Shown here in pieces: positions 126-39,835 of a stretch of DNA of 48,287 bases. Positions within the stretch are counted from its first letter, which is position 1; every line of letters starts with the position of its first letter. The translations under genes were made by a program, and so were the position numbers. Source of the DNA: a virus. Its lineage: Duplodnaviria > Caudoviricetes. The notes under the pieces were generated by a model, which searched no databases, was not told the DNA's origin, and saw nothing but the letters and a program-made list of their open reading frames with translations. The stretch is taken from positions 1 through 48,287 of the IMG/VR virus record IMGVR_UViG_3300049896_000006; one strand, written 5' to 3'.

Positions 126-356
126 TCAGAAGACCTTGCTCAGGAGTCCGCCGAGGAGGATGACGGCGACGATGATGACGACCTTCCATTCATCCCCCTG
201 CGGCATCTGCATCGCCTCGCTGACGATGTACTCCTCTTTGGGATACATGTCGTCATGGCGTTTCCGCCGGTGCTCTGCCCCGAATTCTTTGGCCTTCGAC
301 TTGCGTAGATACGGGGCTGAGGTCAGTTCGCACTTGGCGCATTCGTAGCGGTGCAT
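126..356 (-). CDS. Small CxxC/His protein with C-terminal TM helix
   Basis: MHRYECAKC...EHRRKRH, hydrophobic C-terminus; start re-called at ATG 356. Confidence 0.6.
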   Translation of the reverse strand: MHRYECAKCELTSAPYLRKSKAKEFGAEHRRKRHDDMYPKEEYIVSEAMQMPQGDEWKVVIIVAVILLGGLLSKVF

Positions 357-483
357 GAGCGGGTCCCCCTGGACGGATACTGCGGGTGAACGGTCGGTCT
401 CGTACGGTGCGCATCCACGGTAGCGGCACCGGGGCGTCCGGGGGGAGTCGACGGTCGGAGCGGGCGTCCGGGGCGGGCACGTG

Positions 484-518
484 AGAGGCCCGCCGCTCGG
501 TCGGAGCGACGGGCCTCT
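484..518. terminator. Stem-loop, possible terminator
   Basis: AGAGGCCCG...CGGGCCTCT inverted repeat downstream of 631..1713. Confidence 0.4.
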
Positions 519-630
519 TGGTACCGGTATGCGAGGTATGTCGGTTCGGTACCTCGATACCGGTATGGCTACGGGGCCCCTCTCGGGCGGGGGGAGTGGG
601 GGTCCTCTGACGCTCCCCCAGGCCGGCTGA

Positions 631-1713
631 TCACCCCACCTCGGTACGCCCCTCACCGGGGGCCGCCGTGGGGGCCGCTGCGGGGTGGTGGCTGCGGGCC
701 TGATCGAGGGGGTCAGCGGGGGTGGGAACGATGGCCAGATAGGGGGGTGCGCCGGGGGTGTTGTCGGGCACCAATCGAGGGGGCATTACGGGGGTTTTTC
801 CGAGGTCTTCCGCGAGGTCCTCGACGTGCACTCCGGGGGGCGTGACCGGCTTCCCTTCCAGGCGGAATTTCATCTGCGGCCGGACCGTGATTCCGGCCTT
901 CCCCAGGAACTCGGTCATGCGCTTTCGATCCCAGCCTTCGAGGGGCTGCTTCTCGCGCATTTTTTCGAGGAGATGGTCGACTGTCGCGCCGCGTCCTTTC
1001 GCGTCGAGATGACCGGCCGCTCCGGCTGTTACTTCATGCTCGACGAACTGCCGGATAGCGGCGCGCTGCGCGGGCCACGGATCGCTTTCGGTGTCGGTTT
1101 TCTGGTCCTCCTCCCCCGCCCCTTTTTCTTGATCGTTCTCGGTCGTGTCGTCGTCCTCGGTGAGCGGCGCCCAGTACGCCGCCGTGAGGCACCAGGCGAC
1201 GATCAGGCCGGGGACGACCCCGACGGCGTAGGGGGCGACGAGGCGGGCGATGACCGGCCCGACGCTGCCGAGGGCGGCGAGGGCCATGGCGAGGATGACG
1301 GCGCCGAGGGCGAACTGTTCGGCGGCGCTGGCCGGGCCCCCTGTCCGGCCGGTCGCCTTCGGTGCAGGCTTCTGTTCCTTCTCCTCGTCGTCCTGGTCGT
1401 CGCTGTCGACGGGCCCCTTCGTCATGTCGATCTTGGGCGGCTTCATGACGGCGGGGGCGGGGGCTGCGCCGGCGGCCTTGCGCAGGGCCTGCCAGAGGCC
1501 GCGCAGGATCATCATCGTCAGGACCGGGCTGCCCGCGCGGACGCGGGCTCCCAGCTCGCGCAGCGGCAGGAGCAGCTCCTCGCGCGCGGTCAGCCGTGCA
1601 GGTTCCTTCTCGACCGGTACGGGCTCGGCGTCCGCGGGGCCCGGCAGGGGCGCGGTCGTGGCCGTGGGCTCGTCGGGTTCGGACGGGTCCGGCGTGGTGA
1701 GGTCGACGTGCAT
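631..1713 (-). CDS. Membrane protein with possible C-terminal winged-helix domain
   Basis: Two hydrophobic segments, acidic linkers, helical/basic C-terminal domain. Confidence 0.65.
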   Translation of the reverse strand: MHVDLTTPDPSEPDEPTATTAPLPGPADAEPVPVEKEPARLTAREELLLPLRELGARVRAGSPVLTMMILRGLWQALRKAAGAAPAPAVMKPPKIDMTKGPVDSDDQDDEEKEQKPAPKATGRTGGPASAAEQFALGAVILAMALAALGSVGPVIARLVAPYAVGVVPGLIVAWCLTAAYWAPLTEDDDTTENDQEKGAGEEDQKTDTESDPWPAQRAAIRQFVEHEVTAGAAGHLDAKGRGATVDHLLEKMREKQPLEGWDRKRMTEFLGKAGITVRPQMKFRLEGKPVTPPGVHVEDLAEDLGKTPVMPPRLVPDNTPGAPPYLAIVPTPADPLDQARSHHPAAAPTAAPGEGRTEVG

Positions 1714-1714
1714 C

Positions 1715-2185
1715 TCAGCCTCCCGACATCTTCGCGGCGATCATCCGGATGATGCTGACGGGGATGCCGGGCACGCCACCGGCCTGCCCGGCGAGGACGG
1801 CCCCCGAGATGCTGAACAGGGCGGGCCAGATGACCCGGCTCCCCCAGGGCCATGCCCAGGCGATGAGGAGCAGGGCGACCGCGGAGCCGCCGAGGCCGGG
1901 GTCGCCCAGGCCGAGGCCTTCGGTCAGTCCTTTGCCGATCTCCCCGGCGGAGTCGCCGAAGTCGGCCCAGGTCCCGCCTGCGCCGATCCACAGGGTGGCG
2001 GTGACGAAGCCCCATTTGAGGGCCTGGTCCTTGTTGCCGATCTTGATGCGGTCGCTGCCCCGCAGGCCCGCGATCAGGCCGATCGTGGACAGGAAGGCGA
2101 GGCCGGTGAAGGTGATGGGGCCGAGGAACTGCATGCCGTTGATGCCCGGGACATCGGCGGCGGCGAGGAACGTCGAGGGGATCAC
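1715..2185 (-). CDS. Gly-rich multi-pass membrane protein
   Basis: Start re-called at GTG 2185; several hydrophobic segments. Confidence 0.7.
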   Translation of the reverse strand: MIPSTFLAAADVPGINGMQFLGPITFTGLAFLSTIGLIAGLRGSDRIKIGNKDQALKWGFVTATLWIGAGGTWADFGDSAGEIGKGLTEGLGLGDPGLGGSAVALLLIAWAWPWGSRVIWPALFSISGAVLAGQAGGVPGIPVSIIRMIAAKMSGG

Positions 2186-2196
2186 GGGTGCGCCTT

Positions 2197-3105
2197 TCAG
2201 ACGACGGGAGTGCTGCCGTACGGGAGGCAGGCGAGGAGGGCGGAGGCGAGCGGGACACGGGCCATCCAGCGGGCGGTCCAGTGCCAGTGGCGGACGCGTC
2301 GGTCGATGAGCCACCACAGGCCGGCGCAGATGCCGCCCGCGGTGATGAGCAGGCTGATCTGGTCGGGGCCGAGGCCCCATTGCTGGCCGTAGTCGTTGAG
2401 GTAGCCGACGGGCAGGGGGGCGAAGCGGCGGCCCAGCTCGGCCGCGCAGACGGTGAGGATGACGCGGCTGATCGGCGGGGCCGGGAGGATCGTCTGCACG
2501 GCTCCGGTGCCGGCGACCTTCCAGGCGGCCCAGCCCGCGCCGACCGCGAGGACGAGGCCGAAGGTGCCGACGGCGGCGTGCTCGGCGACGGGCAGGTACG
2601 CGGCGACGACGTCGGTCAGGCCGAAGGCGTAGCCGATGGCGGCGGCGCTGCCGTTGAACGCCACCATCTGGATGCGCCGGTCCTTCATCGCGGAGTCCGC
2701 AGCGGCCTCCACCCGCTTCCGCGTGGCCGACTTGGGCCGGGTGCTGCGCTTGGCGTCCTTGGTGGTCTTCTTGACGGGCTTGCCGGGGACCGGGCCGCTG
2801 GTCGGCGTGGGCTCCTTCGTCTCGTCTTCGGTGGTCTCGTCGGTCTCGTCCTGGTCGTCGTCGGCGGGTGCGGCCGTCGGGCTCGGGGCGGTCTCCCTCA
2901 GGATCGGCCGGCCGACGACCCACCAGTCCGTGATCCGCTTCGGCGGGTCCTGGGGCATAGGTGACGGAACCGTCGTGGCGGCCGGGATCGGCACGGCCGG
3001 GCTCTCGTCGTCTGCGGGCCGTGGGTCGGGATGGCCGACCGGGCGCACGCCCAGGCCGCCCAGCATCTTCTGAGTGAGGCGCTCGCGCGCGTCGGGCGGC
3101 GTCAC
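2197..3105 (-). CDS. Multi-pass membrane protein with disordered N-terminus
   Basis: GTGA overlap with upstream stop; hydrophobic C-terminal half. Confidence 0.7.
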   Translation of the reverse strand: MTPPDARERLTQKMLGGLGVRPVGHPDPRPADDESPAVPIPAATTVPSPMPQDPPKRITDWWVVGRPILRETAPSPTAAPADDDQDETDETTEDETKEPTPTSGPVPGKPVKKTTKDAKRSTRPKSATRKRVEAAADSAMKDRRIQMVAFNGSAAAIGYAFGLTDVVAAYLPVAEHAAVGTFGLVLAVGAGWAAWKVAGTGAVQTILPAPPISRVILTVCAAELGRRFAPLPVGYLNDYGQQWGLGPDQISLLITAGGICAGLWWLIDRRVRHWHWTARWMARVPLASALLACLPYGSTPVV

Positions 3106-3296
3106 TTGCCCCACCCCGCCATCAGGAAGTTGCCGACGGTCGGCACGAGCTGGATGAGGGCGAGCTGAACGCAGCCGGCCACTAGGCCGAACACGAGCAG
3201 GCGCCGGGCGATTCGCCAGCCGCAGCCCCACGCGGTCAGGGGGATGAGGATGGCGAGGACGGCGAGGAGCACGAGGGCGAAGTCGACGACGGTCAT
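3102..3296 (-). CDS. Small two-TM protein
   Basis: MTVVDFALVLLAVLAILIP...; tight operon spacing. Confidence 0.65.
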   Translation of the reverse strand: MTVVDFALVLLAVLAILIPLTAWGCGWRIARRLLVFGLVAGCVQLALIQLVPTVGNFLMAGWGK

Positions 3297-3301
3297 GACG
3301 G

Positions 3302-4093
3302 TCAGCTCCCGGTGTAGGAGGGCATGAGGCGGGCGGCGAGGTCGACGAAGTGCGGGCCACGCTGACGCGGAAGGTGCTCGCGGTCGAGGGCTCGCAGGTA
3401 GTCGCAGGCTTCGGTGGCCGGGACGATGCGCACGCCGGCGACGCGGAGGCGCTCGCCGGGGGCAAGGACGTCGCCGACCATGAGGAGGACGGTCACGGCC
3501 TGGACGGACAGCAGCCTGTTGATCGTCTTCGTCTCGTACCGGACTCCGTCGAGCCAGTCCGTGATGTCGCGCTGGCCGCGCATGAGGCGGCGGCCGTCGG
3601 CGATCCACAGGCGGTAGCGGGCCTGAGCCGACCACCACTTCGGGTCCAGGTTGTAGACGACGCCGCGGGGCGAGATCGCCAGGATGTCGACGTTGGCGGT
3701 GCCGCGCGGGAACCGGCGGTCGTACAGGAAGATCCAGCCCTCAGCGTTGAGTGGGGCGAGGAAGGCGGCCGCTGCCTGCTCCCCCTTGCCGCCGGCCTCG
3801 CACCGGGACGCGAGCTGTTCGGCGCGGGTGCTGATCCCAACGGCGGTGAGTAGGCGGACCCAAGGGGTGCGCAGGGCGCGGGCGCGGGCGAGGGAGGAGG
3901 CGCCGGCCTGACCGGCTGCGCCGGTGCTCGAGGTCGTCCGCTGTCGCGGGACCTTCGGCAGTAGGCGGAGCAGCGGGGTGAAGCGGGCGCGCTGGGTGTA
4001 GGCGGCGGCCGCGACGGCGGCGTAGGCCAGGAGGCCGGGCAGGCCGCCCACCTGAAGTGCGACACCCGCGACGAAGAGGGCGAGGTAGGGCAT
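3302..4093 (-). CDS. NERD (nuclease-related domain) protein with N-terminal membrane anchor
   Basis: GGKGE...ANVDILAISPRGV..LDPKWW resembles the NERD PD-(D/E)xK pattern; hydrophobic N-terminus. Confidence 0.8.
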   Translation of the reverse strand: MPYLALFVAGVALQVGGLPGLLAYAAVAAAAYTQRARFTPLLRLLPKVPRQRTTSSTGAAGQAGASSLARARALRTPWVRLLTAVGISTRAEQLASRCEAGGKGEQAAAAFLAPLNAEGWIFLYDRRFPRGTANVDILAISPRGVVYNLDPKWWSAQARYRLWIADGRRLMRGQRDITDWLDGVRYETKTINRLLSVQAVTVLLMVGDVLAPGERLRVAGVRIVPATEACDYLRALDREHLPRQRGPHFVDLAARLMPSYTGS

Positions 4094-4156
4094 GGGGGCT
4101 CCTTTCGAGGGGGCGGCGATGATCCGGGATTCCGGCGGGGTGGGGGTCCTGTGTCG

Positions 4157-4258
4157 TCACCTGCCGGTGAGGAGTTGACCGACGGTGGTGATCAGTAGGG
4201 CGAGGGCGCAGAGGGCGACGGCGCAGACGGCGAGGGAGCGGAGACGCCGGCCGGTCAC
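4157..4258 (-). CDS. 33-aa single-TM peptide (not in ORF track)
   Basis: MTGRRLRSLAVCAVALCALALLITTVGQLLTGR read by hand. Confidence 0.45.
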   Translation of the reverse strand: MTGRRLRSLAVCAVALCALALLITTVGQLLTGR

Positions 4259-4295
4259 CGGGCGTCCCTGGGGTCGGTCAGTTGGGCGAGGTCGA

Positions 4296-5501
4296 TCACG
4301 ATGACTTCCTTCGGGGACGGGCGCGGTGCTTGGGGTTCTCCTCGCGCTGCCTCGCGCGGCGGACGTTGTCGGCGAGGTTCGTGCTGTCGCCGTGGGCCTG
4401 GCGCACGAGGTCGGTGAGGGCCGCGTCGCTGATGTCCGGGTCCGCGTTGAGGGCGTTGCGGATGGTGGCTGCGCGGCTGTCGCCGAACAGCTCGGTGACG
4501 TTCGCGGGCAGCTTGGGTGACGGCCGCTTCCCGGACGTGTCCGTGTCCTGTCCGGACGGGTCGGGGACTGCGGCCGGGTTGGGTGCTGTGGCCTGGGCGG
4601 ACGGCTGTCCGGACAGGGGCGGCACGAGGGTCTGGGCGGGGGTCTGGGCGGGCGCCTGTCCGGCGCTGTGTCCGGTCTGTCCGGCCGGCTGGACGGGCGG
4701 CTGGGGGACGGGCAGGACCGGCGGCACCGGGTCGGGGATGACCGGGCCGGGTGCGGGTGCGGCCGCTTGCATGACCGGAGTCGGGGCGGGCAGTGCCGTC
4801 GTGGTCTCGGCGCTGGTCATGATCGCGCCCGCGGCCTGGTACTCGCGGCCCCCGACGGCGCGGTGCTGCTCCGCGATCCGGTTGAGGGCGGCGATGCGGC
4901 GGGCGAGCTTCGCCTGTCCGGCCGCTTCCTCCGCCTGGTCCTGGACCCAGTTCGCGATGCCCGCGCGCAGCGGGACGTCCTGTGCGTAGATCAGCAGGGC
5001 CCACAGTCCTTTGGCGAGGAGGTCCAGGCAGGCGCCTACTCCGCCGGCCAGGTCCTGGCCGTGGTCGTGGCCGTAGGTGAAGACGGCGGCCATGCTGATC
5101 GCGAGGGCGATCCAGCCGCCGACTCGCGCCGGTACCGCGCGCTTCGGGTCGGTCTGTGACAGGACCCATTCCAGGCCGAGGCAGGCCATCCATGTCGCGG
5201 TGAAGACGACCCCTACGCCGTAGCTGATGACCGGGTGGAGGATCTCGGACAGTTGCCCGCCAACGCTCGCGGTGGTCCCGATCACGGCGAGGCCGGTGAT
5301 CCCGATGGCGAGGCCGGTGACGCCCCGGATGATGACCCGGTCCCAGTCCCTGGGCGGCTGCGCCACGTACACCGTGTACGGCACATCCCGCGTCGAGGAT
5401 CGGCCGTCGATCACGGTCGTCTCCTGCCGGAACCTCGTCTCGGCCTTGTAGCGCACGCCCGGGATCCGCGGCTGCTGCTCGTCGCTGGTGGTGTCGTTCA
5501 C
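4296..5501 (-). CDS. Spd-like membrane protein: TM bundle, coiled coil, Pro-rich linker, C-terminal helical putative DNA-binding domain
   Basis: About 4-5 TM segments, helical AEEAAGQAKLARR stretch, PAP/QP linker, basic C-terminus; GAAAGG RBS before GTG 5501. Confidence 0.75.
   Translation of the reverse strand: MNDTTSDEQQPRIPGVRYKAETRFRQETTVIDGRSSTRDVPYTVYVAQPPRDWDRVIIRGVTGLAIGITGLAVIGTTASVGGQLSEILHPVISYGVGVVFTATWMACLGLEWVLSQTDPKRAVPARVGGWIALAISMAAVFTYGHDHGQDLAGGVGACLDLLAKGLWALLIYAQDVPLRAGIANWVQDQAEEAAGQAKLARRIAALNRIAEQHRAVGGREYQAAGAIMTSAETTTALPAPTPVMQAAAPAPGPVIPDPVPPVLPVPQPPVQPAGQTGHSAGQAPAQTPAQTLVPPLSGQPSAQATAPNPAAVPDPSGQDTDTSGKRPSPKLPANVTELFGDSRAATIRNALNADPDISDAALTDLVRQAHGDSTNLADNVRRARQREENPKHRARPRRKSS
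4530..4685. repeat. TGTCCGGACA-family cluster A
   Basis: CTGTCCGGACAG 4605-4616, TGTCCGGAC 4549, further TGTCCGG at 4657, 4669, 4678. Confidence 0.7.
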
Positions 5502-5590
5502 TGGTGTGCCTTTCGTGTCACAGAGCGATGGGCCGACCCGGGGTTCGTGAAGGAGGGGCACGAACCCGGGCCGGCCCGGTCTGGGATGGA

Positions 5591-5791
5591 TCAGTCGAAG
5601 GGGATCGAGCCCCGGTCTCCGTAGCGGCGGACGGTGTGCTTGTGGCGGTTGACGCGGTCTTTCCTGGCCGCCGCCTCCTTCTTGGCCTGCTTCGCGAGCT
5701 TCGCCCGGTCCTGCGTGGACGGGTTGGAGGGCCGGGGTTGCGAGGCACTCCCCCCACCGAGGGCGGCACGCAGTCCGTCACGGAACCCCAT
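5591..5791 (-). CDS. Small basic hypothetical protein
   Basis: 66-aa ORF, TGATG coupling. Confidence 0.6.
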   Translation of the reverse strand: MGFRDGLRAALGGGSASQPRPSNPSTQDRAKLAKQAKKEAAARKDRVNRHKHTVRRYGDRGSIPFD

Positions 5792-5928
5792 CAGCGACCA
5801 CCCGCCTGGGTACGGGAAGGCTTCGCGTTGACGCCGTCGATGCGTGCGTTGTCCGCGCCCATCCGGGAGTCCTCGCGTTGCTGGCGGCCGGCCTCGTACG
5901 CCTTCGCGGCGCGCTCCTGCTCGCTCAT
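5791..5928 (-). CDS. Small hypothetical protein
   Basis: ATGA overlap with upstream stop, GGAGG RBS. Confidence 0.55.
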   Translation of the reverse strand: MSEQERAAKAYEAGRQQREDSRMGADNARIDGVNAKPSRTQAGGR

Positions 5929-6236
5929 CGGCCTGCCTCCGCCGACAGCACGAGGACCAGCCGCTTGCCGTACTGGCCGCACGTCTCGCCCGCCTCGACG
6001 TCAGGAGCGAACTCCCGCAGTCCCGCGAGGACGGCCGCAGGCCAGCCCTTCGCCAGCTCCGCGGTCAGCCACTCGACGTGGTGCTGCTCGACCGGCGTGG
6101 TCGGCGACGTCTCGCGGAGGATGACCGACATCTCGTCGAGCTTCGCCTCGACGATCTCGCTCACCGTCAGCCCGGCCTCGGCGGCCTGAGCGAGGGTCAG
6201 CGTGGAGGCCATCCGGGCCGCCAGAGTGTTCGTCAT
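5925..6236 (-). CDS. Hypothetical protein
   Basis: MTNTLAARMAS...; overlapping start/stop. Confidence 0.6.
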   Translation of the reverse strand: MTNTLAARMASTLTLAQAAEAGLTVSEIVEAKLDEMSVILRETSPTTPVEQHHVEWLTAELAKGWPAAVLAGLREFAPDVEAGETCGQYGKRLVLVLSAEAGR

Positions 6237-6424
6237 CACGCGGCGACCGCCCTGGCCTGCTCCTGGCGCGGCTGCTGCGGGATGCGGGGCGTGTCGTCCG
6301 ACGGGCGCGGCCTCGGGATGATCGGGATCGCCCGCTCGTTCGCGTCGTCCTCCCACGCCGAACGGATGTCACCGGCGACGCCCTGGGGCGTACGGGAACG
6401 GAGATCAGTACTCTTCTGTGTCAT
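6236..6424 (-). CDS. Small hypothetical protein, first gene of left operon
   Basis: AGGAG RBS; downstream of the 6517 palindrome. Confidence 0.55.
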   Translation of the reverse strand: MTQKSTDLRSRTPQGVAGDIRSAWEDDANERAIPIIPRPRPSDDTPRIPQQPRQEQARAVAA

Positions 6425-6516
6425 GCGTCAGCTCCTGGTAGCTCAGGTTTCTGGCGCGGCCCCCGACCGTTGTTCTCAGGCTCCGGTCGGGGGCCGACTT
6501 GTAGGCGCGGAGTGGC

Positions 6517-6561
6517 GCCGATTGCCCAATCTACGGGACTCCCGTAAATTGGGCAATCGGC
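6517..6561. promoter_or_regulatory. 45-bp near-perfect palindrome containing divergent -10 boxes (operator/promoter)
   Basis: GCCGATTGCCCAATCTACGGGA-C-TCCCGTAAATTGGGCAATCGGC, one mismatch; TAAATT on + and TAGATT on -. Confidence 0.8.
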
Positions 6562-6581
6562 CACGGCAGAAAAGGGACCGG

Positions 6582-6920
6582 ATGGCCGACCAGCAGCCAG
6601 GCGGCGAGGAAGAGGTACAGCGCGTGTTCGACGCACTGGATGGCCTCAAGGCCATGAAGGATCCGAAGGCCCGCGCCAAGGCGATCAGCGCGTTTCTGCG
6701 GGAGCAGCAGCCTCGCCTCAGGGAGTTGAGCGAGCTGCGCCGTGCGTATGTCAAGGATGAGCGGAAGCGGAAAGTTCCACGCTGGAAGATCGCGGAGGAC
6801 ATCGGTGTGTCGGCCTCGACCGTCCAAGACATCGAGCAGGGCTATTCCGGCTCGGGCCGGGCCAGGCCGCCGAAGGGCGAGACTAAGCGTGCTGAAGCAG
6901 GAGAACCCGGAAGCGAGTAG
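6582..6920 (+). CDS. HTH transcriptional regulator divergent from membrane operon
   Basis: WKIAEDIGVSASTVQDIEQG helix-turn-helix; start ATG 6582. Confidence 0.8.
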   Translation: MADQQPGGEEEVQRVFDALDGLKAMKDPKARAKAISAFLREQQPRLRELSELRRAYVKDERKRKVPRWKIAEDIGVSASTVQDIEQGYSGSGRARPPKGETKRAEAGEPGSE

Positions 6921-6954
6921 GCCGACGGCCGACACCGCCTGATCCGGTGCAACT

Positions 6955-6987
6955 GAGGGCCCCGCCAGGGTGATCGGCGGGGCCCTC
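6955..6987 (+). terminator. Stem-loop terminator
   Basis: GAGGGCCCCGCC / GGCGGGGCCCTC 12-bp stem after HTH gene. Confidence 0.65.
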
Positions 6988-7190
6988 GGGTGTCCCCCAG
7001 GCCGCCGGGCGGGGGACGTGCAGGCCGCCGGTTGTGGTCCCGGGCTACGCGGTACCCCTGGGTACCAGGCGGGGCGCGGGCAGCGTCTGGCCGTGCGGGG
7101 TCAGCATGGCATAGGTGGACCGTGGTCCGTTTCGTTGCCGGATGGGATGGGGGTGCGCGTCTGGGGTTGGCCGGATATATATTCGAACTT

Positions 7191-7869: not shown

Positions 7870-9848
7870 GGGGTGGCCGGCGGGTCGAGGGGGCCGGGGT
7901 CCTTGAGCCAGGTCGCGAGGTTGGTCAGGGCGCGGTTGCGGGTGTCGCCTGTGCCGAGGGGGGATAGGCCGCGTTGGCGGGCGATGTACCTGGTGACGGT
8001 GGTGACGTCGGCGCGTAGCCAGTCGTACGCCTCCTTGTACCTGAGGGCGCGGGCGAGGGTGCGGCGGAGGAGGTCGGCACAGTCGGGGCGGTTGCAGGTG
8101 TGGGCGGTGCTGGGCGGGTCGTCCAGGACGGTGGTCGCGGCGTCGGGGCGGCGGCAGTCGTCGTGTGAGCAGGTGACGCAGCCCCCGGACCCGAGGAACA
8201 GGCCCTCGCGCCGGCAGGTGGGGCAGATCCCTGCGACGTGGGGGAAGGTCCAGTCCGCGGGGCCCTTGCCCGTCTGGATGCTGCGCCAGCGTTCGATGGT
8301 CTGGGGGTCGAGGTAGCCGGTGCGGGTGGCTTTGCCGCCGACGTCGGCGTGGACGGTGAAGTGGCCGAGGATGTCGGCGAGGGCGGTGGCGAGTTCGCCG
8401 ACCCGGGCGCGTAGGGCGGCGATCTCGCTGGTGTGGTCGGGGTGGTCGCCGCTTGGGGCGGATCCGCCCGGTGCGGGCAGGGTGGGGTTGTAGCGGGGCA
8501 TGGTGCGCAGGGCGTCGCTGATGGCGAGGGTGAGTTCCCAGTGGGCTGTCTCGCCGGGGCGGGACAGCTCGGTGTCGACAGTCGCGCGGATGACCTTCCG
8601 CTCGCGTTCGGTGTCGGTGAGTCCGTCGGGGCCGAGGTACGTGTCTTCGGCGGCCGGCGGGCCGGGCTCGTCGGGCGCGACCGCCGCGGTGTCCTCGTCG
8701 GGGCCGCGGGGCGTGGCGCGGGTGATCGCGGCGAACGCTTCGGCGAGGGCGGCGCCCATCTGCCGGCGGGGAACGCGTGCTGTCCACACTGTCCGGACAG
8801 TGTCCGGACAGGTTGTCCGGGCCGTGTCCGGGTCGTCCTCGCGGACAGGGTCCGGGTCGTTGTCCGGACACGCTGTCCGGACAATGTCCGTGCTGGTCAA
8901 GACGGGTGCGGTCGTGTCCGTGTCCAGGGCTGTCCGGGGGGTGTCCGGACTGTCCGTGTCCGGACACGTGTCCGGGGTGGTGCCCGGGTCGCCGTCCTTC
9001 CAGAAGAGGGTGCTGCCGTCTTGCGACGTGCCTTCGTGCCAGAGGCCGGGGGTGCCGTCGGGGTGCCGGTCGTGGTGCCGCTCGCAGCGGGCGCGGCCGT
9101 GGAACGGCTCCAGGCAGAGGGACGTGCAGGCCCACGCCTGCGGACGGTGGAGGCCGGTGCGGATACAGGGGCCGTCGCGGCCACAGTCGCAGTCGGCGCA
9201 CCGCCAGCAAAAGAGCTGGTCTAGGTAGTTGTCGTACACGACCGGGCCGCCGCCGCACACGCAACACAGGGCGGCGGCCGGGTACCTGCTCCCCTCGACG
9301 AGGTGCGTGCGGGCGTCGACGACCGCAGGGCGGGCGCTCTTGGGGCACTCGGGGTGCGGGTGGACTTCCTCGCCGTTCTCCTCGTAGCAGAGGCCGCAGT
9401 CGAGCAGCCGGGCGCGGGCCGCGGCGAGAGTCGCTTCAGCGCGCTCGTACCCGTCGTTGTCGGTCGCCGGGTCGAACTGCCACGGCTCGCCCTCGTCGTT
9501 CGTGATCAGGGACCAGCCGGTGAAGGCGCCGCGGTCGTCGGTGTGGACGGCGAGGGCGACGCCGCGGGGGTGGAGTGCGGTGCGGTTGATCAGCCATAGG
9601 AGGCCGCTGTTGCGGAGGTCGGTCCAGGGGCGGGGGGCGCCGGCCGGGCCGGGCTGGGGTTCGTTGGTCGGGGAGATGTCGAAGGCGGCGGGGAAGGTCT
9701 CGCGGCCGCCGCCGGGCGTCTCCAGGACGATGGACCACTGGTCCCATACCTCGGTGAGGCGGCCCTGCCAGACGCGGCGGGGGTCGTCGGGGTGCTTGAC
9801 CGTGACCCAGTGGTCGAGGAGGCCGGTGAGGGTCCGCAGGTCGTTCAC
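7866..9848 (-). CDS. Large mosaic hypothetical protein with several Cys/His clusters
   Basis: 660-aa ORF; CGLC, CCVC, CWRC, CPTC motifs; PDT repeats. Confidence 0.7.
   Translation of the reverse strand: MNDLRTLTGLLDHWVTVKHPDDPRRVWQGRLTEVWDQWSIVLETPGGGRETFPAAFDISPTNEPQPGPAGAPRPWTDLRNSGLLWLINRTALHPRGVALAVHTDDRGAFTGWSLITNDEGEPWQFDPATDNDGYERAEATLAAARARLLDCGLCYEENGEEVHPHPECPKSARPAVVDARTHLVEGSRYPAAALCCVCGGGPVVYDNYLDQLFCWRCADCDCGRDGPCIRTGLHRPQAWACTSLCLEPFHGRARCERHHDRHPDGTPGLWHEGTSQDGSTLFWKDGDPGTTPDTCPDTDSPDTPRTALDTDTTAPVLTSTDIVRTACPDNDPDPVREDDPDTARTTCPDTVRTVWTARVPRRQMGAALAEAFAAITRATPRGPDEDTAAVAPDEPGPPAAEDTYLGPDGLTDTERERKVIRATVDTELSRPGETAHWELTLAISDALRTMPRYNPTLPAPGGSAPSGDHPDHTSEIAALRARVGELATALADILGHFTVHADVGGKATRTGYLDPQTIERWRSIQTGKGPADWTFPHVAGICPTCRREGLFLGSGGCVTCSHDDCRRPDAATTVLDDPPSTAHTCNRPDCADLLRRTLARALRYKEAYDWLRADVTTVTRYIARQRGLSPLGTGDTRNRALTNLATWLKDPGPLDPPATP
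8781..8975. repeat. TGTCCGGACA-family cluster B
   Basis: Perfect 10-mers at 8790, 8801, 8861, 8874, 8957 plus many half-sites. Confidence 0.9.
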
Positions 9849-10446: not shown

Positions 10447-10970
10447 TCGGTCGCCTCGCTGTCGGCCGGTGGCGTCTCGGGCTGCGGGGCGCGCCGGCGT
10501 TCGCAGGCGTCTTCCTCGTCGTTGGTTTCGTGCGCCGCTTCACAGATGGGCATGGGCATGGGTTCGGGGGTGGGCCCGGGGTCGGGCCGTCCGTCGTCGT
10601 ACTGCCAGAGCGGGTGTTCGGGGCGGGCGGTGATGTGGAGGCATTCGAGGAGGTAGCGGGCGGCGTAGGTGCAGACCTCGGGGTGGAGCTCGATCGGGTA
10701 GGGGGTGGCGTTGTCGAGGGCGTGGGCGAGGGCCTCGACAGTCATCCCGCAGCCGGGTGGACACAGGGCCTCGTCCCAGCGGAACTCGCAGCGCTGGCAT
10801 TCGCGCTGCAGCCGTTCGGGCAGGGGGCCTCGGCGCAGGCGGCCGCCGTGGCTCTGGAGGAGCATGCCGGGGGCGAGTGCCGGCTGGTGTCTGGTGTCCG
10901 CCTCGGGGTTGCTGCACTTGGGGCAGGGGGTCTCGGTCCCGCTGTAGGGGGGCAGGATGGTGGCGGTCAT
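10443..10970 (-). CDS. Zinc-ribbon hypothetical protein
   Basis: CPKC...CQRC; ATGA coupling. Confidence 0.65.
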   Translation of the reverse strand: MTATILPPYSGTETPCPKCSNPEADTRHQPALAPGMLLQSHGGRLRRGPLPERLQRECQRCEFRWDEALCPPGCGMTVEALAHALDNATPYPIELHPEVCTYAARYLLECLHITARPEHPLWQYDDGRPDPGPTPEPMPMPICEAAHETNDEEDACERRRAPQPETPPADSEATE

Positions 10971-11329
10971 TCGTCGTCTCCAGCTTCGGCGAGGTAGTCG
11001 GACCGGCGGGGTGCGCCCTTGGGACAGGTGGCGTCGTGGGCTTCGCCGAAGGTTTCCCACCAGGTCTCGCAGGAGCACTGTTCGACGCGGGTCAGGCGGC
11101 GGGCGGCGCGGCGGGCCCGGAGGCGGGTGACCCAGGCGGGGCGTCCGGTCTCGTGGAGGTCGGCGCGGCTGATCTCGCGGACGAGGGCGGCGAGCGTGAT
11201 GGCCGCGATGGCGTACAGGGTGAGGGCGAGATCCCACCGGTCGAGGGTCGCCGCGAGAGTGCCGGCGCGCGCGGTGCCGAGGAGGACCAGGCCGTGGAGG
11301 CCGAACATGATCTTTCCGGTGAGAGTCAT
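10967..11329 (-). CDS. Membrane protein with C-terminal Cys/His cluster
   Basis: Two hydrophobic segments then CSCETWW..HDATC. Confidence 0.6.
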   Translation of the reverse strand: MTLTGKIMFGLHGLVLLGTARAGTLAATLDRWDLALTLYAIAAITLAALVREISRADLHETGRPAWVTRLRARRAARRLTRVEQCSCETWWETFGEAHDATCPKGAPRRSDYLAEAGDDE

Positions 11330-11423
11330 CTGGTCGGCCTCCTCATGGTGTGGCGGGCGCGGCGGGCGGCGTGCGGCACGGTGGCGAGCAGCGGCGCGGC
11401 GAGGATGAGGACGGTCAGGGCGT

Positions 11424-11840
11424 TCACTGTGCGGCCGCCGGGATGTCCATGCGGGGGACCTGGTCGAGGTACTTGGCGTACACGCTCTCGACGGCTTCAC
11501 GGACGGCGGCGGTCAGGACGCGGCGGAAGGCGGGTTCGAGGTGGCTGCCGGCGGCGATCTGTACGGCGATGTCCTCCCCGCGGGGGGTGCGCCAGAGGTG
11601 GGCGTGGATGGGTTCGAGGTCTGCGGCGCCCAGCTCGATCGCCCAGAGGGAGACGTCGGCTGCGCCCCGGACGAGGGCGATGACGCGGCGGGTGATCTCG
11701 TCGTGGTCCTTGCCGCCGGTGACCTGTGTGCAGGCGGGAAGGGTGCTGAGGAATCCGGCGACGTCGGCGGGGTGGGGGTGGCCGGCGAGTTGCTGGTGGA
11801 GGGCGGCGGCCGCCTGGTGGAGGTCGGTGGTGGTGGTCAT
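11424..11840 (-). CDS. Hypothetical protein
   Basis: MTTTTDLHQ...; ATGA coupling, AGGAG RBS. Confidence 0.6.
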   Translation of the reverse strand: MTTTTDLHQAAAALHQQLAGHPHPADVAGFLSTLPACTQVTGGKDHDEITRRVIALVRGAADVSLWAIELGAADLEPIHAHLWRTPRGEDIAVQIAAGSHLEPAFRRVLTAAVREAVESVYAKYLDQVPRMDIPAAAQ

Positions 11841-12457
11841 GGCTGCAGCTCCTGCGGGGTGGGGCGGTGGATGGCGGCCGCGAGGTCGACAGCGGCCTGG
11901 CTGAGGGAGTCCTGTACGAGGCCGCCCTCCTGGTGGACGGATTCGTATGCCTCGTGCAGGACGGCGGTGACGGCCCGGCCGAAGTCGGGGTTGACGGTGG
12001 CGATGTACGCGGCGTCGGCGGCGGCCTGCGGATGCCCGGCCGGGCCGGTGAGGGCGACGCAGTCGGTAGCGGTGGTGCCGCCTGCGACGAGTTCGGCGCC
12101 GGGTGCGGTGCCCTGGCTGACGGTCCAGCGGATACCGGTGGGCGGCCGGTAGGTCCACCGGCCGGGGGTGGCCCTGTTGACGAGGGCGAGGAGCGTGCTC
12201 TCGGCGGCCTGCAGCAGTTCGTCCGGGCGCGGCTGCGGGAGGGTGAGGCCGGCCGGGCCGTGGGCGAGGATGACGCGGGGGCGGCCGCGGACGCCGGAAC
12301 AGGCGGCGCAGTAGTCGGTGCCGCCGTTGGCGCGCCAGCCGTACGCCGCGGCGATCGTGCGGGCCTCGCCGATCGTCAGGGCGTCGGTCATGAGGGACTG
12401 GGCGCATGCCGATAAGCCGTGCACGGTGTTGCAGTGGAGCGAGATGCGGACGCTCAT
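11837..12457 (-). CDS. Zn-finger plus Ead/Ea22-like protein; contains a TTA codon
   Basis: ATPGRW...DAAYIATVNP motif; codon 15 is TTA (12413-12415). Confidence 0.65.
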   Translation of the reverse strand: MSVRISLHCNTVHGLSACAQSLMTDALTIGEARTIAAAYGWRANGGTDYCAACSGVRGRPRVILAHGPAGLTLPQPRPDELLQAAESTLLALVNRATPGRWTYRPPTGIRWTVSQGTAPGAELVAGGTTATDCVALTGPAGHPQAAADAAYIATVNPDFGRAVTAVLHEAYESVHQEGGLVQDSLSQAAVDLAAAIHRPTPQELQP

Positions 12458-13038
12458 GGCTGGATGACCCCGTGCTCGTCGACGCGCAGGGGTACGGGCT
12501 CCTCGGCGAGGTCCCTGGCAATCTTGAGGAGGGCGCGGCAGACGGCCCTCTCGCGTGGGTCCTCGACCGTCTGCTGATCGACGCGGTACAGGCTGACCCG
12601 GTCGGTCGCGGCGTAGATCAGCGCGGGTCCGTCGTCGACGCCGGGTAGCGGCGGCTTGCTGAAGTCCCCGATTTCCAGGGCGTGCACGGCCAGGGCGTGG
12701 CACACGCAGCGCTCGCGCGCATCGGTCGGGGCGGAGCGGTCGACCCAGGTGACGGTGCGGGTCTCGTTCGTTTCCGGGGTGATGTAGAAGAGGGCGGGGC
12801 CGCTCACGGCGAGTTGGAAGCCAGCGGCCCGCAGGGAGCCGACGAGGGGCCGGCCGACCAGGAATGCCCGGTGGACGGGAAGGCTCCAGCGGCTGTCTCC
12901 CACGACGGTGATCCTTTCGCCGTTCAGCTCGGTGACGGTCCCCACGACGGTGTCGGTGGTCGGCAGGGGGAGGGTGCCGCCGACGGTGTCGCCGACGTGG
13001 AGGGGGCGGCCTGCGGCGTCGAGGGTGCTGGTCGTCAT
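12454..13038 (-). CDS. Hypothetical protein with SH3/KOW-like N-terminus
   Basis: LDAAGRPLHVGDTVGG shared with 13171..13704; internal DxRERxVCxAL repeat. Confidence 0.65.
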   Translation of the reverse strand: MTTSTLDAAGRPLHVGDTVGGTLPLPTTDTVVGTVTELNGERITVVGDSRWSLPVHRAFLVGRPLVGSLRAAGFQLAVSGPALFYITPETNETRTVTWVDRSAPTDARERCVCHALAVHALEIGDFSKPPLPGVDDGPALIYAATDRVSLYRVDQQTVEDPRERAVCRALLKIARDLAEEPVPLRVDEHGVIQP

Positions 13039-32378: not shown

Positions 32379-33281
32379 TCAGGTCGTGTACTCGCGATCC
32401 CTCAGGGCGGCCTCACGGACGAGTGGGGCGAGCAACTCCGCGTCGAGGCCGCCGAGGTAGGCGACCAGGCGCGCGCGCGTCTGGTCGAGGTGACCGGCCA
32501 GGCCGTCACCGAGGAGGCCGGAGGGCCGCAGCACCCGCCGGAACACCGGATCGTCCAGCGCGCCGGCAAGGAGCTGCTCAGCCAGCCAGTACGGCGTGCG
32601 CTCCCGGACAGCGAACGTCAGGTGCACGCTGTCCCCGCCGTCCGGCGGCACGGCTGGGTTGTGGACCCAGCCGCGCGGCAGGAGCAGCGTCTGCCCCGGC
32701 TCCAGGTCGACCACCATGTCCGGGCCGGCCGCCTCCCACCCGGGGAGCCACTCCTTCTGCCACACCCGCCACGACTCGGCGAACTCGCGCATCGGCGCGT
32801 CGACGACCGGCCGCCACAGCTCCCACCGCTTCACGCCCGCGATCTGGACGACGACGGCCAGTTGCTGATCCCAGTGGTGGGTGAGGCCCTGGCAGCCCGC
32901 GGGGGTGAGGAAGGCGTGCACGTACGTCGAATAGCCGGTCTCCTGCTGGATGCCACGGCACGCCTGGTACAGGACGGGGATGACGCGCTGTGCGTGGCCC
33001 AGCCGCACGGTGAAGCCAGCCTCGTACAGGCCGCGGAGCTTCTTCCCGCACGTACGCCCAGCCTCCGTGAACGCGGCCTGCGTGATCGACGGGTGGGGCG
33101 TCTTCACCACGGCGATCTCCGGGGCCGGGTAGCACCCCGAGTCGATGTACTCGTTCAGCAGGTCCGCGGTGATGACGCTGTCCACAGCGCAGCCGCCCCG
33201 CCGGTAGACCACCGGCTCGGTCGGCCACTGCGCCATGAGGTCGTCAACGCCCTGAGCGGGCAGCAGCTGGTGCAGCGACAT
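32379..33281 (-). CDS. JmjC/cupin 2OG-Fe(II) oxygenase (YcfD/RoxA-like)
   Basis: FLTP...GLTHHWD..VVQIAGVKRW...LLLPRGWVH gives HxD...H triad; AAGGAG RBS. Confidence 0.9.
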   Translation of the reverse strand: MSLHQLLPAQGVDDLMAQWPTEPVVYRRGGCAVDSVITADLLNEYIDSGCYPAPEIAVVKTPHPSITQAAFTEAGRTCGKKLRGLYEAGFTVRLGHAQRVIPVLYQACRGIQQETGYSTYVHAFLTPAGCQGLTHHWDQQLAVVVQIAGVKRWELWRPVVDAPMREFAESWRVWQKEWLPGWEAAGPDMVVDLEPGQTLLLPRGWVHNPAVPPDGGDSVHLTFAVRERTPYWLAEQLLAGALDDPVFRRVLRPSGLLGDGLAGHLDQTRARLVAYLGGLDAELLAPLVREAALRDREYTT

Positions 33282-33307
33282 CGCTTCTCCTTCACGCGGA
33301 GAGGGGA

Positions 33308-33745
33308 TCAGGGTCGAGGGCAGGCAAGTTCTGGAAGGTGGCGGTTCACGCAGGCGACGACGGAAAAGGACGCCAGCGCCCTGGACTGTGTCCAGTAGCC
33401 CCACGACACGTCCACACCGTGACCGAGGGCCTCGACGGCGTACGCGGCCTTCGCCTCCAGGTCGACGTACGCCTGCTTACCGTCCTCGCCCTCCATCGGG
33501 GGGTTGGCCGCGTACTGCTTCTCCATCCAGCGGACGGCCTCGCCCGGGTCCGTCCACGTCCCCGCGACCTGGTTGCGGCGCATCAGCCAGTGGCCGGTGC
33601 GCACCGGCGGCATCTTCGACCTGAGGAACGCCTCGGTGTGCGGGTCGCCGGGCGTCGTACCGGGGCGGCGCATAGCCTCCCGGGCGTACTCCGCACCGCT
33701 GCCGACCCAGGGACCGAAACCGTGCAAGTGACCTGACCAGTCCAC
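33308..33745 (-). CDS. Trp-rich hypothetical protein
   Basis: 145-aa ORF, AAAGGTGA RBS. Confidence 0.7.
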   Translation of the reverse strand: MDWSGHLHGFGPWVGSGAEYAREAMRRPGTTPGDPHTEAFLRSKMPPVRTGHWLMRRNQVAGTWTDPGEAVRWMEKQYAANPPMEGEDGKQAYVDLEAKAAYAVEALGHGVDVSWGYWTQSRALASFSVVACVNRHLPELACPRP

Positions 33746-33768
33746 GTGTTCACCTTTCGAGGGAGCGA

Positions 33769-33804
33769 GAGCGGGCCCCGGCCGCCGTCAGCCGGGGCCC
33801 GCTC
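33769..33804 (-). terminator. Stem-loop after DUF397 gene
   Basis: GAGCGGGCCCCGGC / GCCGGGGCCCGCTC 14-bp stem. Confidence 0.6.
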
Positions 33805-33832
33805 AGAGGTCCTGCGGGGTCAGAGCGTAGAG

Positions 33833-34063
33833 CTACGCACTGACAACGCCCGGCCCGTCGGTGAAGAAGGCGCGCAGCTCGTCACCCGTGAAGCGCAGCA
33901 CCATGCCGGCGCCGCCGTCCTTGCTGTCGCGGAGCGCGAACGCGTCGACAGCGCCGGGGATGCGCGCCACCTCGACGCACGTCTCGTTGTCGCCGCCCTG
34001 GTTGCCGCCGCACATCGAGGTGTACTCGGCGCCGTCCAGCGACAGCTCGTAAAGGTTTTCCAC
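33833..34063 (-). CDS. DUF397 (BldB/Scr2-like) small protein
   Basis: CVEVA...LRDSK...LRFT..EL.AF; AAGGAG RBS before GTG 34063. Confidence 0.85.
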   Translation of the reverse strand: MENLYELSLDGAEYTSMCGGNQGGDNETCVEVARIPGAVDAFALRDSKDGGAGMVLRFTGDELRAFFTDGPGVVSA

Positions 34064-34185
34064 GGAACACTCCTTCGTGTCAGGCCCCGGGAACCAGCCC
34101 CCGGGACTGTCCGAACCCCCCGGGCGGAGGGCTGGGCCCGCCCACACCCCGGGAACGGGGAGGACACCGGAGTGTGGGCGGGAGT

Positions 34186-34272
34186 TCATCGGTGGAGCAG
34201 GGAGTAACCGACGGACCCCATCCAGGCGGCCACCGACAGCGCCAGGAGCGCCTGTTGAGCGGCTGTCCTCAC
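34186..34272 (-). CDS. 28-aa hydrophobic peptide (not in ORF track)
   Basis: MRTAAQQALLALSVAAWMGSVGYSLLHR; GTGA overlap with HATPase stop. Confidence 0.4.
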   Translation of the reverse strand: MRTAAQQALLALSVAAWMGSVGYSLLHR

Positions 34273-34682
34273 GGGACGACGTCCAGGTGTGCCCAGACCC
34301 GCTTGCCCCAGTGCAGGCGGTCTGTGCCCCACTCCACGGCGAGCGTGTCGACGAGGACCAGGCCCCGCCCGTGCTCCATGCCGGCCGCCCGGCCAGCGAG
34401 GAGGGCGGGCATGATCCTGCTGCAGTCGGTCACCGCGATCCGTACGCCCGCCGGGCGGCGCGTCACGGTCAGCCGCAGCGACGTCCCCCTCGCGTGCACG
34501 ACCGCGTTCGTGACCAGCTCCGAGCAGACCAGGGCCGCATCGTCCACCAGGACGTCGAGGCTCCAGCAGGCGAGCGCCTCGACGGTCAGCCGCCGGGCCT
34601 TCGGTACGGCCGCCCGCTCACGGCCGAGGGACTCGGTGTAGGCGGGAGCCCCGATCCCGACAGCCCTCGCGGCCAGCATCAT
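34269..34682 (-). CDS. HATPase_c anti-sigma-like ATP-binding protein (RsbW/AbaA-like)
   Basis: SELVTNAVVHA, IAVTD, EHGRGLVLV, GKRVWA. Confidence 0.9.
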   Translation of the reverse strand: MMLAARAVGIGAPAYTESLGRERAAVPKARRLTVEALACWSLDVLVDDAALVCSELVTNAVVHARGTSLRLTVTRRPAGVRIAVTDCSRIMPALLAGRAAGMEHGRGLVLVDTLAVEWGTDRLHWGKRVWAHLDVVP

Positions 34683-35239
34683 GAGCCCCCTCCCCACTCT
34701 TCCCGCGCCGCACGGACCCGGCCGATCTCCGCGACCATGGCCAGCCGACCGGGCTGACACAGATCGCCCGGCCCATGCATCGCCACCGACCAGTAGGAGA
34801 GACCCACACCGGGCGCGAACAGGGCGGGCGAGGGCACGACGAGGGCGGACTGCCGGCCGAGGAACGTCGTGCTCTCCGCGGCCCAGTCGTGCTCAGCGCT
34901 CGCCGGGACCAGCGCGTAGTAGCGGCCTTCCCTCACCTCATGGAAGACGCCGCCGCCCTCAAGCGACTCGTCGAGGTAGACGGCGACCTTCACCGGGTTG
35001 CTCGTGCCGGCGGCCGCATGGACCAGCCAGTCGGGCAGGCAGACCGCCGAGAACAGCGTGCCGCAGTTGAGCAGGGCGCGGCCGGTGTCAACCCAGTTCT
35101 CACGCGCCTGCTCCAGATCGTGAGCGGCCTGCAGCAGCCATGTCCCGGCCGCCGCCGCCCGTTCCTCCGGGCTCACGTCCCGTGGTGCGGGCGGATTCCC
35201 GCCCACCGTTAGTCGCGGCTCGCGCGCTGATGTCGCCAT
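34679..35239 (-). CDS. Hypothetical protein, possibly primase-polymerase-like fold
   Basis: FSAVCLP...GGVFH...YYALVP...LVVPSP; ATGA-coupled to HATPase. Confidence 0.65.
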   Translation of the reverse strand: MATSAREPRLTVGGNPPAPRDVSPEERAAAAGTWLLQAAHDLEQARENWVDTGRALLNCGTLFSAVCLPDWLVHAAAGTSNPVKVAVYLDESLEGGGVFHEVREGRYYALVPASAEHDWAAESTTFLGRQSALVVPSPALFAPGVGLSYWSVAMHGPGDLCQPGRLAMVAEIGRVRAAREEWGGGS

Positions 35240-35372
35240 GGTGAAGCCCCCAACCGGCTCTGACGTTTGCAGTGATGGCGAGTACAACGGGCATTACCCT
35301 GAGTCAACTAGTACCGGCACAGGGCAACCTGTATAACCCGGTATAACGCCCTGGTTGGGAGGGTGGAGCACC

Positions 35373-38051: not shown

Positions 38052-38447
38052 TCAGACCCCGGCAGGCGGGGGCGGATGCGGGGGTTCGCCGTCGCGCTGC
38101 CGGCACTGGTCGTCATCCGCCGGCAGCATCCGGGCAAGCTGACAGTTCACCAGGTCGACCGCGTCTCTCAGGGACTCCCCACTGTTCGGCTGCAACTCAT
38201 GGTGTACGCCCTGCATACGGGCCTCAATGCCCTGCACGCGAGCCAGGACGCCGGGCCGGGCCGGGACCCCCGGACGGCCCTCCTGTCCGTACCAGTCGTC
38301 AAAGAACTGGTTGACCCGCCGACCGATCCGGACGGCCGCGCGCACGAACCGCCACAGGCCCGTGCCCAGGCTGATGACCACCGTCGCGACGGTCGCCCAC
38401 ACGAGGGCGGCGTCGAGGGCCGGGATCCCGGTGGGGTCGGGCATCAC
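38052..38447 (-). CDS. Single-TM lysis-cassette protein
   Basis: TM then DDWYG..RPGVPARPGV...ELQPNSGESLRDAV; GTGA-coupled to holin. Confidence 0.7.
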   Translation of the reverse strand: MMPDPTGIPALDAALVWATVATVVISLGTGLWRFVRAAVRIGRRVNQFFDDWYGQEGRPGVPARPGVLARVQGIEARMQGVHHELQPNSGESLRDAVDLVNCQLARMLPADDDQCRQRDGEPPHPPPPAGV

Positions 38448-39563: not shown

Positions 39564-39835
39564 CAGACACGCTCCCAGTCGTCGGCGAGGGCATCGGTCT
39601 GGCTGATCACCCACGGCACGAAGTCGCCCCCGACGGTGCGGAGCATCAGGTACGGCAGGAACCGGCACACGGTCCCCTCCACGAGGCCCGTCGCCGCCGC
39701 GGTGTTCGAGTTGATGGGGATGCCGTCGGGGTAGCCCGCCTGGTGCACGACCCACATGCCCGTACCGTTCCACCCCGCCCGCGTGATGCGGGCACCGTCC
39801 CTGACCGCCGCGCGCAGCGCCTCCCCGATGTCCAC
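39563..39835 (-). CDS. DUF2829 / Tad2-like protein
   Basis: 90 aa; IGEAL...G.RITRAGWNG.GMW...PYLM...VPW..SQTDALADDW. Confidence 0.85.
   Translation of the reverse strand: MDIGEALRAAVRDGARITRAGWNGTGMWVVHQAGYPDGIPINSNTAAATGLVEGTVCRFLPYLMLRTVGGDFVPWVISQTDALADDWERV

Follow-up and report, generated by a model that had tools for sequence, protein, structure and literature searches.

What does a tailed phage do with an operon of membrane proteins that resembles the spread (spd) loci of Streptomyces plasmids and carries no motor of its own? We addressed this for IMGVR_UViG_3300049896_000006, a viral contig (Caudoviricetes) of 48,287 bp and about 70% G+C that was analysed over its whole length, referred to here as the window. 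At its left end lies a minus-strand cassette that includes an SpdB-like membrane protein, two further membrane proteins (A and B), a membrane-anchored protein with a predicted winged helix (C) and, behind the gene for C, an array of short repeats. We propose, with about even confidence, that this cassette is a conserved motor-less relative of the Streptomyces spread operons, in which C would tether the DNA of the element to a membrane complex of the Spd type and so serve its distribution in the mycelium. The proposal is built on the gene content, the homology to SpdB, the recurrence of the cassette in phages and plasmids, and the joint exchange of the winged-helix domain with its array, all of which are read from sequence comparison.

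A cassette of the Spd kind

4296..5501, minus strand: SpdB-like protein, 401 amino acids (aa), with four membrane segments, a coiled segment, a Pro-rich linker and a small C-terminal domain
2197..3105, minus strand: gene A, 302 aa, with a Pro/acidic N-terminus and a C-terminal membrane domain
1715..2185, minus strand: gene B, 156 aa, a glycine-rich all-helical membrane protein
631..1713, minus strand: gene C, 360 aa, with two membrane segments, an acidic linker and a C-terminal predicted winged-helix domain (residues ~211-305)

The product of 4296-5501 is, by profile comparison, a distant homologue of pIJ101 SpdB with a homologous four-segment membrane domain (HHalign 90.9%, E 1.1e-6 over 132 columns; 27.9 bits). 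Many relatives of the 401-aa protein carry the Pfam family SpdB_N (PF27080); our own Pfam scan returned no SpdB_N row, and the name therefore rests on the annotation of those relatives. The SpdB-like proteins of 20 loci share a conserved C-terminal domain, which matched neither the pIJ101 SpdB nor the pJV1 SpdB2 ends, for which single-sequence templates only were available. Pfam, PHROGs and NCBIfam gave no name to A, B or C. The model of B is of good quality (predicted local distance difference test, pLDDT, 86.6) and has six helices, with no clear match in fold searches (best Z 5.9), and a homologue of gene A is found on the plasmid pSNA1 (tblastn E 6e-7).

The sequence-only reading had likened the locus to plasmid spread loci of both the spd and the kil-kor type. 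The first half of that likeness holds, as the locus encodes an SpdB homologue and its core recurs on Streptomyces plasmids, where it faces a GntR gene and has a DUF2637 gene next to it. The kil-kor label is not supported, no cassette profile having matched pIJ101 KilB, Tra/KilA or KorA. The profile comparison suggested by the same reading returned pIJ101 SpdB, and no match to pIJ101 SpdA, the pJV1 Spd and Tra proteins or DUF2637. The helix-turn-helix (HTH) protein encoded divergently from the cassette showed a weak resemblance to KorB (HHalign 2.2%, 43 columns, 30% identity) and is not a GntR protein. On these comparisons the locus is a variant of the Spd kind and not a member of the kil-kor kind. 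Three parts of it are absent from the sequence-only reading, namely the winged-helix domain with its array, the NERD protein with its intact catalytic residues, and the conserved stem in the leader.

In its anatomy the cassette is like pIJ101 SpdB and the spdB3-spd79-spdB2 operon of pSVH1, in that a four-segment SpdB domain is encoded with coupled small membrane genes and a divergent repressor. Unlike these spd operons it has no match to tra/traB, spdA, orf66 or kilB, its putative repressor is a small HTH protein in place of a GntR protein, and its A, B, C, D and NERD proteins match no protein of pIJ101 or pJV1. The plasmids pSNA1 and pEN2701 and larger Streptomyces plasmids carry A-B-C(-D) too, arranged in the same order and with an array following C; these plasmids differ from the cassette in having a GntR repressor, no NERD gene, and an SpdB2-like or DUF2637 gene in the SpdB slot that is unmatched by the SpdB profile. 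The phage TurkishDelight and the phage-like plasmid pSITFR-21c share SpdB-A-B-C, the HTH gene and the palindrome with the window. Neither VWB nor phiC31 matched the SpdB profile, and phiC31 matched none of the cassette profiles. No description of the cassette or of the array was found in the literature searched, which left out most subscription papers, among them the original reports on pSNA1, pEN2701 and VWB.

A predicted winged-helix domain exchanged together with its repeat array

520..565, no strand: repeat array, located past the stop codon of C, with ATACC/GTACC words that run in both orientations; candidate clt-like site of protein C
577..601, minus strand: CCCCACTCCCC...GAGAGGGG element ahead of the array, variant of a conserved motif that occurs behind C

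Protein C is predicted from its model to be a membrane-anchored winged-helix protein. The best fold match of its C-terminal domain is to a LOTUS domain (Z 7.2, root-mean-square deviation 2.5, 69 aligned), in a list whose best rows run from Z 7.2 to 5, where a Z under 8 names no family; the matches below LOTUS are, judging from their titles, mostly what we take to be winged-helix types. Three of ten rows in an Atlas structure search with the domain were actinobacterial FtsK-type proteins, below the naming bar, and Foldseek gave no match to it at E<=0.001. The 120 homologues of the domain that were listed are 184-485 aa long, and none has an FtsK family recorded for it. At two other loci (L017, 14784-15515; L046, 14688-15428) C is followed by a second winged-helix paralogue, with no array behind it.

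The array of the window holds 8 TACC/GGTA words in 60 nt, and elsewhere in the window there are at most 4. Array analyses across the relatives were made after L051 and L022 had been dropped as duplicates. A CCCTCCCC-type motif is present in 34 of 52 regions behind C, compared to 118 of 2951 background windows, and GCAGGTC in 35 of 52 compared to 408 of 2951. By a frequency-weighted repeat score 21 of the 52 regions beat the background of their own locus (p<=0.05), and 23 of 50 regions behind the C domain pass the pooled 95th percentile, as opposed to 0-4 of 20-41 behind the SpdB, A, B, D and HTH domains. The phage VWB fits the same arrangement, with the C domain in gp26 (E 6.5e-15) and a TCTCCC array.

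The word that is repeated tracks the domain. Its class is the same as that of the nearest winged-helix neighbour in 40 of 44 labelled regions (shuffled mean 11, maximum 24), a count that leaves out eight unlabelled regions, two of them the paralogue copies. Across the 31 loci having both SpdB and a word label, the word changes 4 times on the winged-helix tree (minimum 3, shuffled 13.0) and 11 times on the SpdB tree (shuffled 12.9). A label-free Mantel test on 34 dereplicated loci links the array to the C domain (r 0.40, p 0.001) and finds no significant link of the array to SpdB, A or B. The clearest single case is a pair of phage loci, L012 (word class GGAGA) and L013 (CAAC), whose SpdB and B proteins are 99% and 96% alike and whose winged-helix domains are 29% alike; their DNA is 92-99% alike on the flanks, falls to 44-49% over the domain and array, and then recovers. 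By these alignments the two phages have swapped domain and array together, and across the set the repeat word follows the winged-helix tree rather than the SpdB tree, so that domain and array are exchanged jointly between elements.

This arrangement recalls the traB-clt pairs of pJV1, pSVH1 and pWTY27, in which a membrane-anchored winged-helix protein is followed by an element-specific array of short repeats (PMC3583192), and in pJV1 the array lies directly behind traB as it does here behind C. Unlike TraB, C has neither an ATPase domain nor a sequence match to the TraB C-termini. As TraB uses its winged helix to bind short direct repeats, and binds clt-like sites at other places too (PMC3583192, PMC3218068), the array might instead serve as a clt-like site for the TraB of a co-resident conjugative element, with the cassette supplying only Spd partners, and the relaxases found on several cassette plasmids, which look mobilisable, would suit such hitch-hiking. 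We consider it improbable, as the array word follows the winged helix of the cassette itself, which would be unexpected if a foreign protein read the array.

Distribution in phages and plasmids, and the absence of a motor

Scans for the locus with single proteins found nothing and alignments were required; the loci retrieved by the SpdB alignment were 33 viral and 7 genomic ones. Of 49 sequences with called genes, 44 have SpdB, 42 the C domain, 30 B, 28 A and 20 D; the SpdB count is circular, as this set was gathered largely via SpdB. In many smaller phages the block stands a few genes ahead of a terminase-like ATPase. The smaller phages also have two membrane genes lying between SpdB and C, for which no link to A or B could be established (HHalign 1.9% and 5.1%). 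On plasmids the A-B-C core lies opposite a GntR gene in 15 of 15 so arranged among those examined (14 of the 19 plasmid hits were examined), and the operon usually includes a DUF2637 or SpdB2-like gene, as on pSNA1, pEN2701, pSSFR2 and others. In the last set, of ten plasmids, A and B were matched in all ten and C in nine.

Three of these plasmids show features of their own. On pSNA1 (L001) the C homologue lies unannotated in a frame ending at 5141, where a short opposite-strand ORF (open reading frame) is listed. On pSSFR2 (L008, 18359-20068) A and B are annotated as one protein and the end of A is in another frame, possibly a frameshift in the record. The small circular plasmid NZ_CP108186 (L061, 16.3 kb) carries a terminase-family gene, primase genes and a GntR/A-B/DUF2637 operon, and is possibly a satellite.

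To see here the decaying remnant of a plasmid, of no use to the phage, would be a very poor account of this distribution, as the frames are open, the order is conserved in dozens of phages at 30-60% identity, often just upstream of terminase, and a matched repressor and operator have been kept. In a second soil run 9 silent variants and 11 changing ones were seen; these might be taken in its favour and are too few and too shallow to show selection.

The sequence-only reading saw no FtsK/TraB ATPase in the window, and indeed none of the 64 window proteins matches the FtsK family. It proposed a search for traB to the left of the window. The contig ends 125 nt beyond the last cassette gene and contigs from two soil runs gave no extension of this end; TraB is probably not there, as complete relatives are mostly without FtsK. 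The FtsK family PF01580, a blunt test given that pJV1 TraB itself falls below its cut-off, was matched in 5 of 43 records, 3 of them above the cut-off, and in 2 of 21 near-complete viral relatives, where it is not in the cassette. Only one locus, L041, has PF01580 next to SpdB, and it lacks A, B and C. In that viral record (10909-12666) SpdB is followed directly by a TraB-like FtsK protein, a motor-bearing counterpart of the cassette. Of ten further plasmids five gave weak PF01580 matches, all of them outside the operon and not above the cut-off. A Walker A pattern by which pIJ101 Tra and pJV1 TraB are recognised had no match in pSNA1, pEN2701 or NZ_CP108187, while a search with pJV1 TraB matched only itself, missed pIJ101 Tra and is uninformative on absence. 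As PF01580 is rare among the relatives and the Walker A pattern was not found on these three plasmids, the distribution of the cassette appears largely TraB-independent.

The lack of a motor can be read in a second way, namely that C and the array would act as a centromere-like membrane anchor that positions phage or plasmid DNA along the membrane as it replicates, or segregates it, inside a single compartment as well as into branches or spores, without any crossing of cross-walls. A tether of this kind needs no motor and predicts the same anatomy as our proposal. In phage phi29 the replicating DNA is distributed by p16.7, a DNA-binding protein anchored in the membrane. SpdA2, a plasmid protein that binds a palindrome, acts in stability rather than in spread (PMC4170104). 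Set against this are the leading gene of the cassette, which is related to a spread protein, the pores formed by SpdB2, and the fact that partition is often already covered, by a ParB-family gene on pSITFR-21c and a ParA gene on two cassette plasmids. We regard simple tethering as a serious minority explanation, rather unlikely on balance.

Regulation of the cassette

6582..6920, plus strand: HTH protein, 112 aa (Pfam HTH_23 E 2e-4, below cut-off)
6517..6561, no strand: 45-bp palindrome with 22-nt arms, 95% complementary; candidate operator over two divergent promoter-like sites
6457..6496, minus strand: conserved leader stem of 13 pairs, placed after the promoter-like site and before the first gene
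6953..6989, plus strand: hairpin following the HTH gene, a candidate terminator that lacks a U tract (-39.1 kcal/mol for 6941-7000)

The cassette had been described from the sequence as a set of genes diverging from an HTH gene across a 45-bp palindrome, with a hairpin after the HTH gene, and this description is borne out. The palindrome and the HTH gene lie where stated, and the palindrome scores 19 against a maximum of 13 among 200 resampled sequences, none of which reaches 19. Two promoter-like sites overlap within it, TTGCCC-N17-TAAATT on the plus strand and TTGCCC-N17-TAGATT on the minus strand, which presumably resemble Streptomyces housekeeping promoters; a strict sigma-70 scan called no promoter, both sites matching 8 of 12 positions and so falling below its bar, and under a looser pattern sites in both directions occur in 8 of 21 loci. 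A homologous HTH gene diverges from the cassette in these 21 loci, the window included, with a palindrome just before most of them. Compared by eye among related loci, the operator core varies with the HTH recognition helix: STVQDIE-type helices pair with TAYGGGAsTCCCRTA, GAVQNIE with GTATGCCATGGCATAC and ERAQQI with AACCCTAGGGCTTG...CAAGCCCTAGGGTT. Such covariation is what a repressor and operator pair should do, and the HTH protein is likely an autorepressor acting on both promoters.

In the leader stem 99.2% of cells are paired and four pairs are changed on both sides among ten aligned sequences. On these data it may equally be an RNA hairpin or a DNA inverted repeat, possibly serving as an attenuator or stabiliser, and an Rfam search gave one row at chance level. 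The hairpin behind the HTH gene is real, and a comparable one is present in only 9 of the 21 loci, the window included.

Layout and accessory genes of the cassette

5591..6424, minus strand: four small soluble coupled genes, 66/45/103/62 aa, variable among relatives
4255..4299, minus strand: 14-codon ORF, candidate coupling peptide, its ends (GTGA at each) overlapping the stop of SpdB and the start of the next gene
4157..4258, minus strand: 33-aa membrane peptide
3302..4093, minus strand: membrane-anchored NERD nuclease-like protein (PF08378 E 3.3e-8), with E105, D136, D150 and K152 present
3102..3296, minus strand: 64-aa two-segment membrane peptide
484..518, minus strand: hairpin of 15 pairs that separates gene D from the array, candidate terminator (-32.2 kcal/mol)
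126..356, minus strand: gene D, 76 aa, with a CxxC...H-x3/4-H zinc-finger-like motif and a C-terminal membrane segment (phrog_32136)

The cassette comprises 12 minus-strand ORFs of 33-401 aa from 126 to 6424, plus the 14-codon ORF, with a third-position G+C content of 0.79-0.95 in the 11 measured. An earlier count of about a dozen coupled membrane-protein genes was right as to number, with a hydrophobic segment in 8 of the 12 (Kyte-Doolittle >=1.6) and the first four genes (6424-5591) soluble, and overstated the coupling, which is partial: of 11 junctions four are overlaps and one more is spanned by the mini-ORF, while gaps of 1-11 nt occur at three and gaps of 63, 89 and 274 nt at the remaining three. 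The last gene (126-356), 274 nt beyond C and behind the hairpin, may be transcribed separately.

By its domain match, above the cut-off, and its catalytic residues, the product of 3302-4093 belongs to the NERD / PD-(D/E)xK nuclease family. The catalytic set E-D-DxK is invariant in 14 of 14 cassette homologues, a count that leaves out L039, where the gene lies in a different place. The gene is an optional part of the cassette, found in 14 of the cassettes examined and in none of ten further plasmid loci.

A putative nuclease among many small membrane proteins raises the thought of exclusion or defence, in which the membrane proteins would block related phages or plasmids, the tethered nuclease would cut incoming DNA and the array would mark self. 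The invariance of the catalytic residues is in keeping with this, as would be the swappable specificity of domain and array, which we take as typical of exclusion groups. We nevertheless think it unlikely, as the patchy occurrence of NERD does not fit it, and a repressor site over both promoter-like sites would imply low expression in an established lysogen.

Phage context and other features of the contig

The window encodes a tyrosine integrase, RecT/YqaJ, WhiB, an amidase and minor tail genes, and holds no head genes, being a partial genome. A tail-region protein (46027-47463) has matches in 14 of 37 related records, including TurkishDelight and pSITFR-21c. Because the relatives with names are Streptomyces or close kin, we infer that the host of the window phage is a streptomycete.

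Four other features of the contig were recorded. Directly upstream of the amidase gene, 39563-39835 on the minus strand encodes a Tad2-like anti-defence domain (PF11195, E 6.8e-21). Beside the integrase, 32379-36770 encodes a JmjC protein, a DUF397 protein, a HATPase_c-like protein and a divergent 465-aa unnamed gene, a block that we presume to resemble a host-type regulatory trio carried as cargo. A tRNA-Gln called by ARAGORN at 38246-38334 on the minus strand lies inside a 130-aa ORF (38052-38444) and may be spurious. Finally, TGTCCGGAC-type direct and inverted repeats occur at 8785-8996 within a 660-aa ORF.

A model for the cassette and its implications

We propose the following model for the cassette. 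SpdB, A and B would form a membrane channel or scaffold, and C would bind, via its predicted winged helix, the repeat array behind its own gene, thereby holding the phage DNA at a membrane site of the SpdB type, from where it would be distributed through the mycelium. The HTH protein would repress both overlapping promoters, so that the operon fires when the DNA enters a cytoplasm free of repressor, either after infection or after crossing into a new compartment, as is thought for spread operons. Any motor would come from the host or a co-resident element, or none would be used, and the NERD nuclease would be an optional accessory. Support from a known system comes from SpdB2 of pSVH1, which is required for spreading and forms pores (PMC4447253).

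Several points weigh against this model. Known spreading needs TraB (PMC4447253), and none is encoded here. The homology to SpdB is distant (22% identity) and confined to the membrane part, and the 401-aa protein has no match to pJV1 SpdB2, DUF2637 proteins or SpdB C-termini. The fold model of the C domain is modest (pLDDT 67.8), and its profile comparison to TraB C-termini reached HHalign <=1.8%. Domain and array are neighbours, and linkage alone would make both travel together. The word classes were picked after inspection; a first, generic repeat score was significant in only 2 of 52 regions and was replaced by the frequency-weighted one, by which the array of the window is itself borderline for its locus (p 0.049), and this array is without GCAGGTC. 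Only 26 of 52 top words lie mostly beyond the C stop codon, and the CAAC class and most GGAGA arrays fall within the protein tail and could be repeats at the level of the protein.

A bolder form of the model is possible and, in our view, doubtful. Here Streptomyces phages and TraB-less plasmids would share a second, motor-free spreading system, in which a winged-helix receptor and a swappable repeat address load DNA onto an SpdB/A/B channel, and the phage would colonise neighbouring hyphal compartments without virions. The general idea that phage-borne SpdB aids spread is already in print, SpdB2 homologues of some actinophages having been named as possible helpers in getting phage DNA to spread (PMC4447253); the pairing of domain and array is new here.

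How phages handle a mycelium of many compartments and what the Spd proteins do are both open questions, most Spd functions being unknown according to PMC4447253. The pairing of domain and array offers handles on both, in the form of a site of 46 bp and a domain of 100 residues, of swap pairs in nature from which specificity can be predicted, and of carriers in culture such as VWB and the 9.4-kb pSNA1. If spread by this cassette needs no TraB, the view that TraB drives all spreading of DNA in Streptomyces would need revision.

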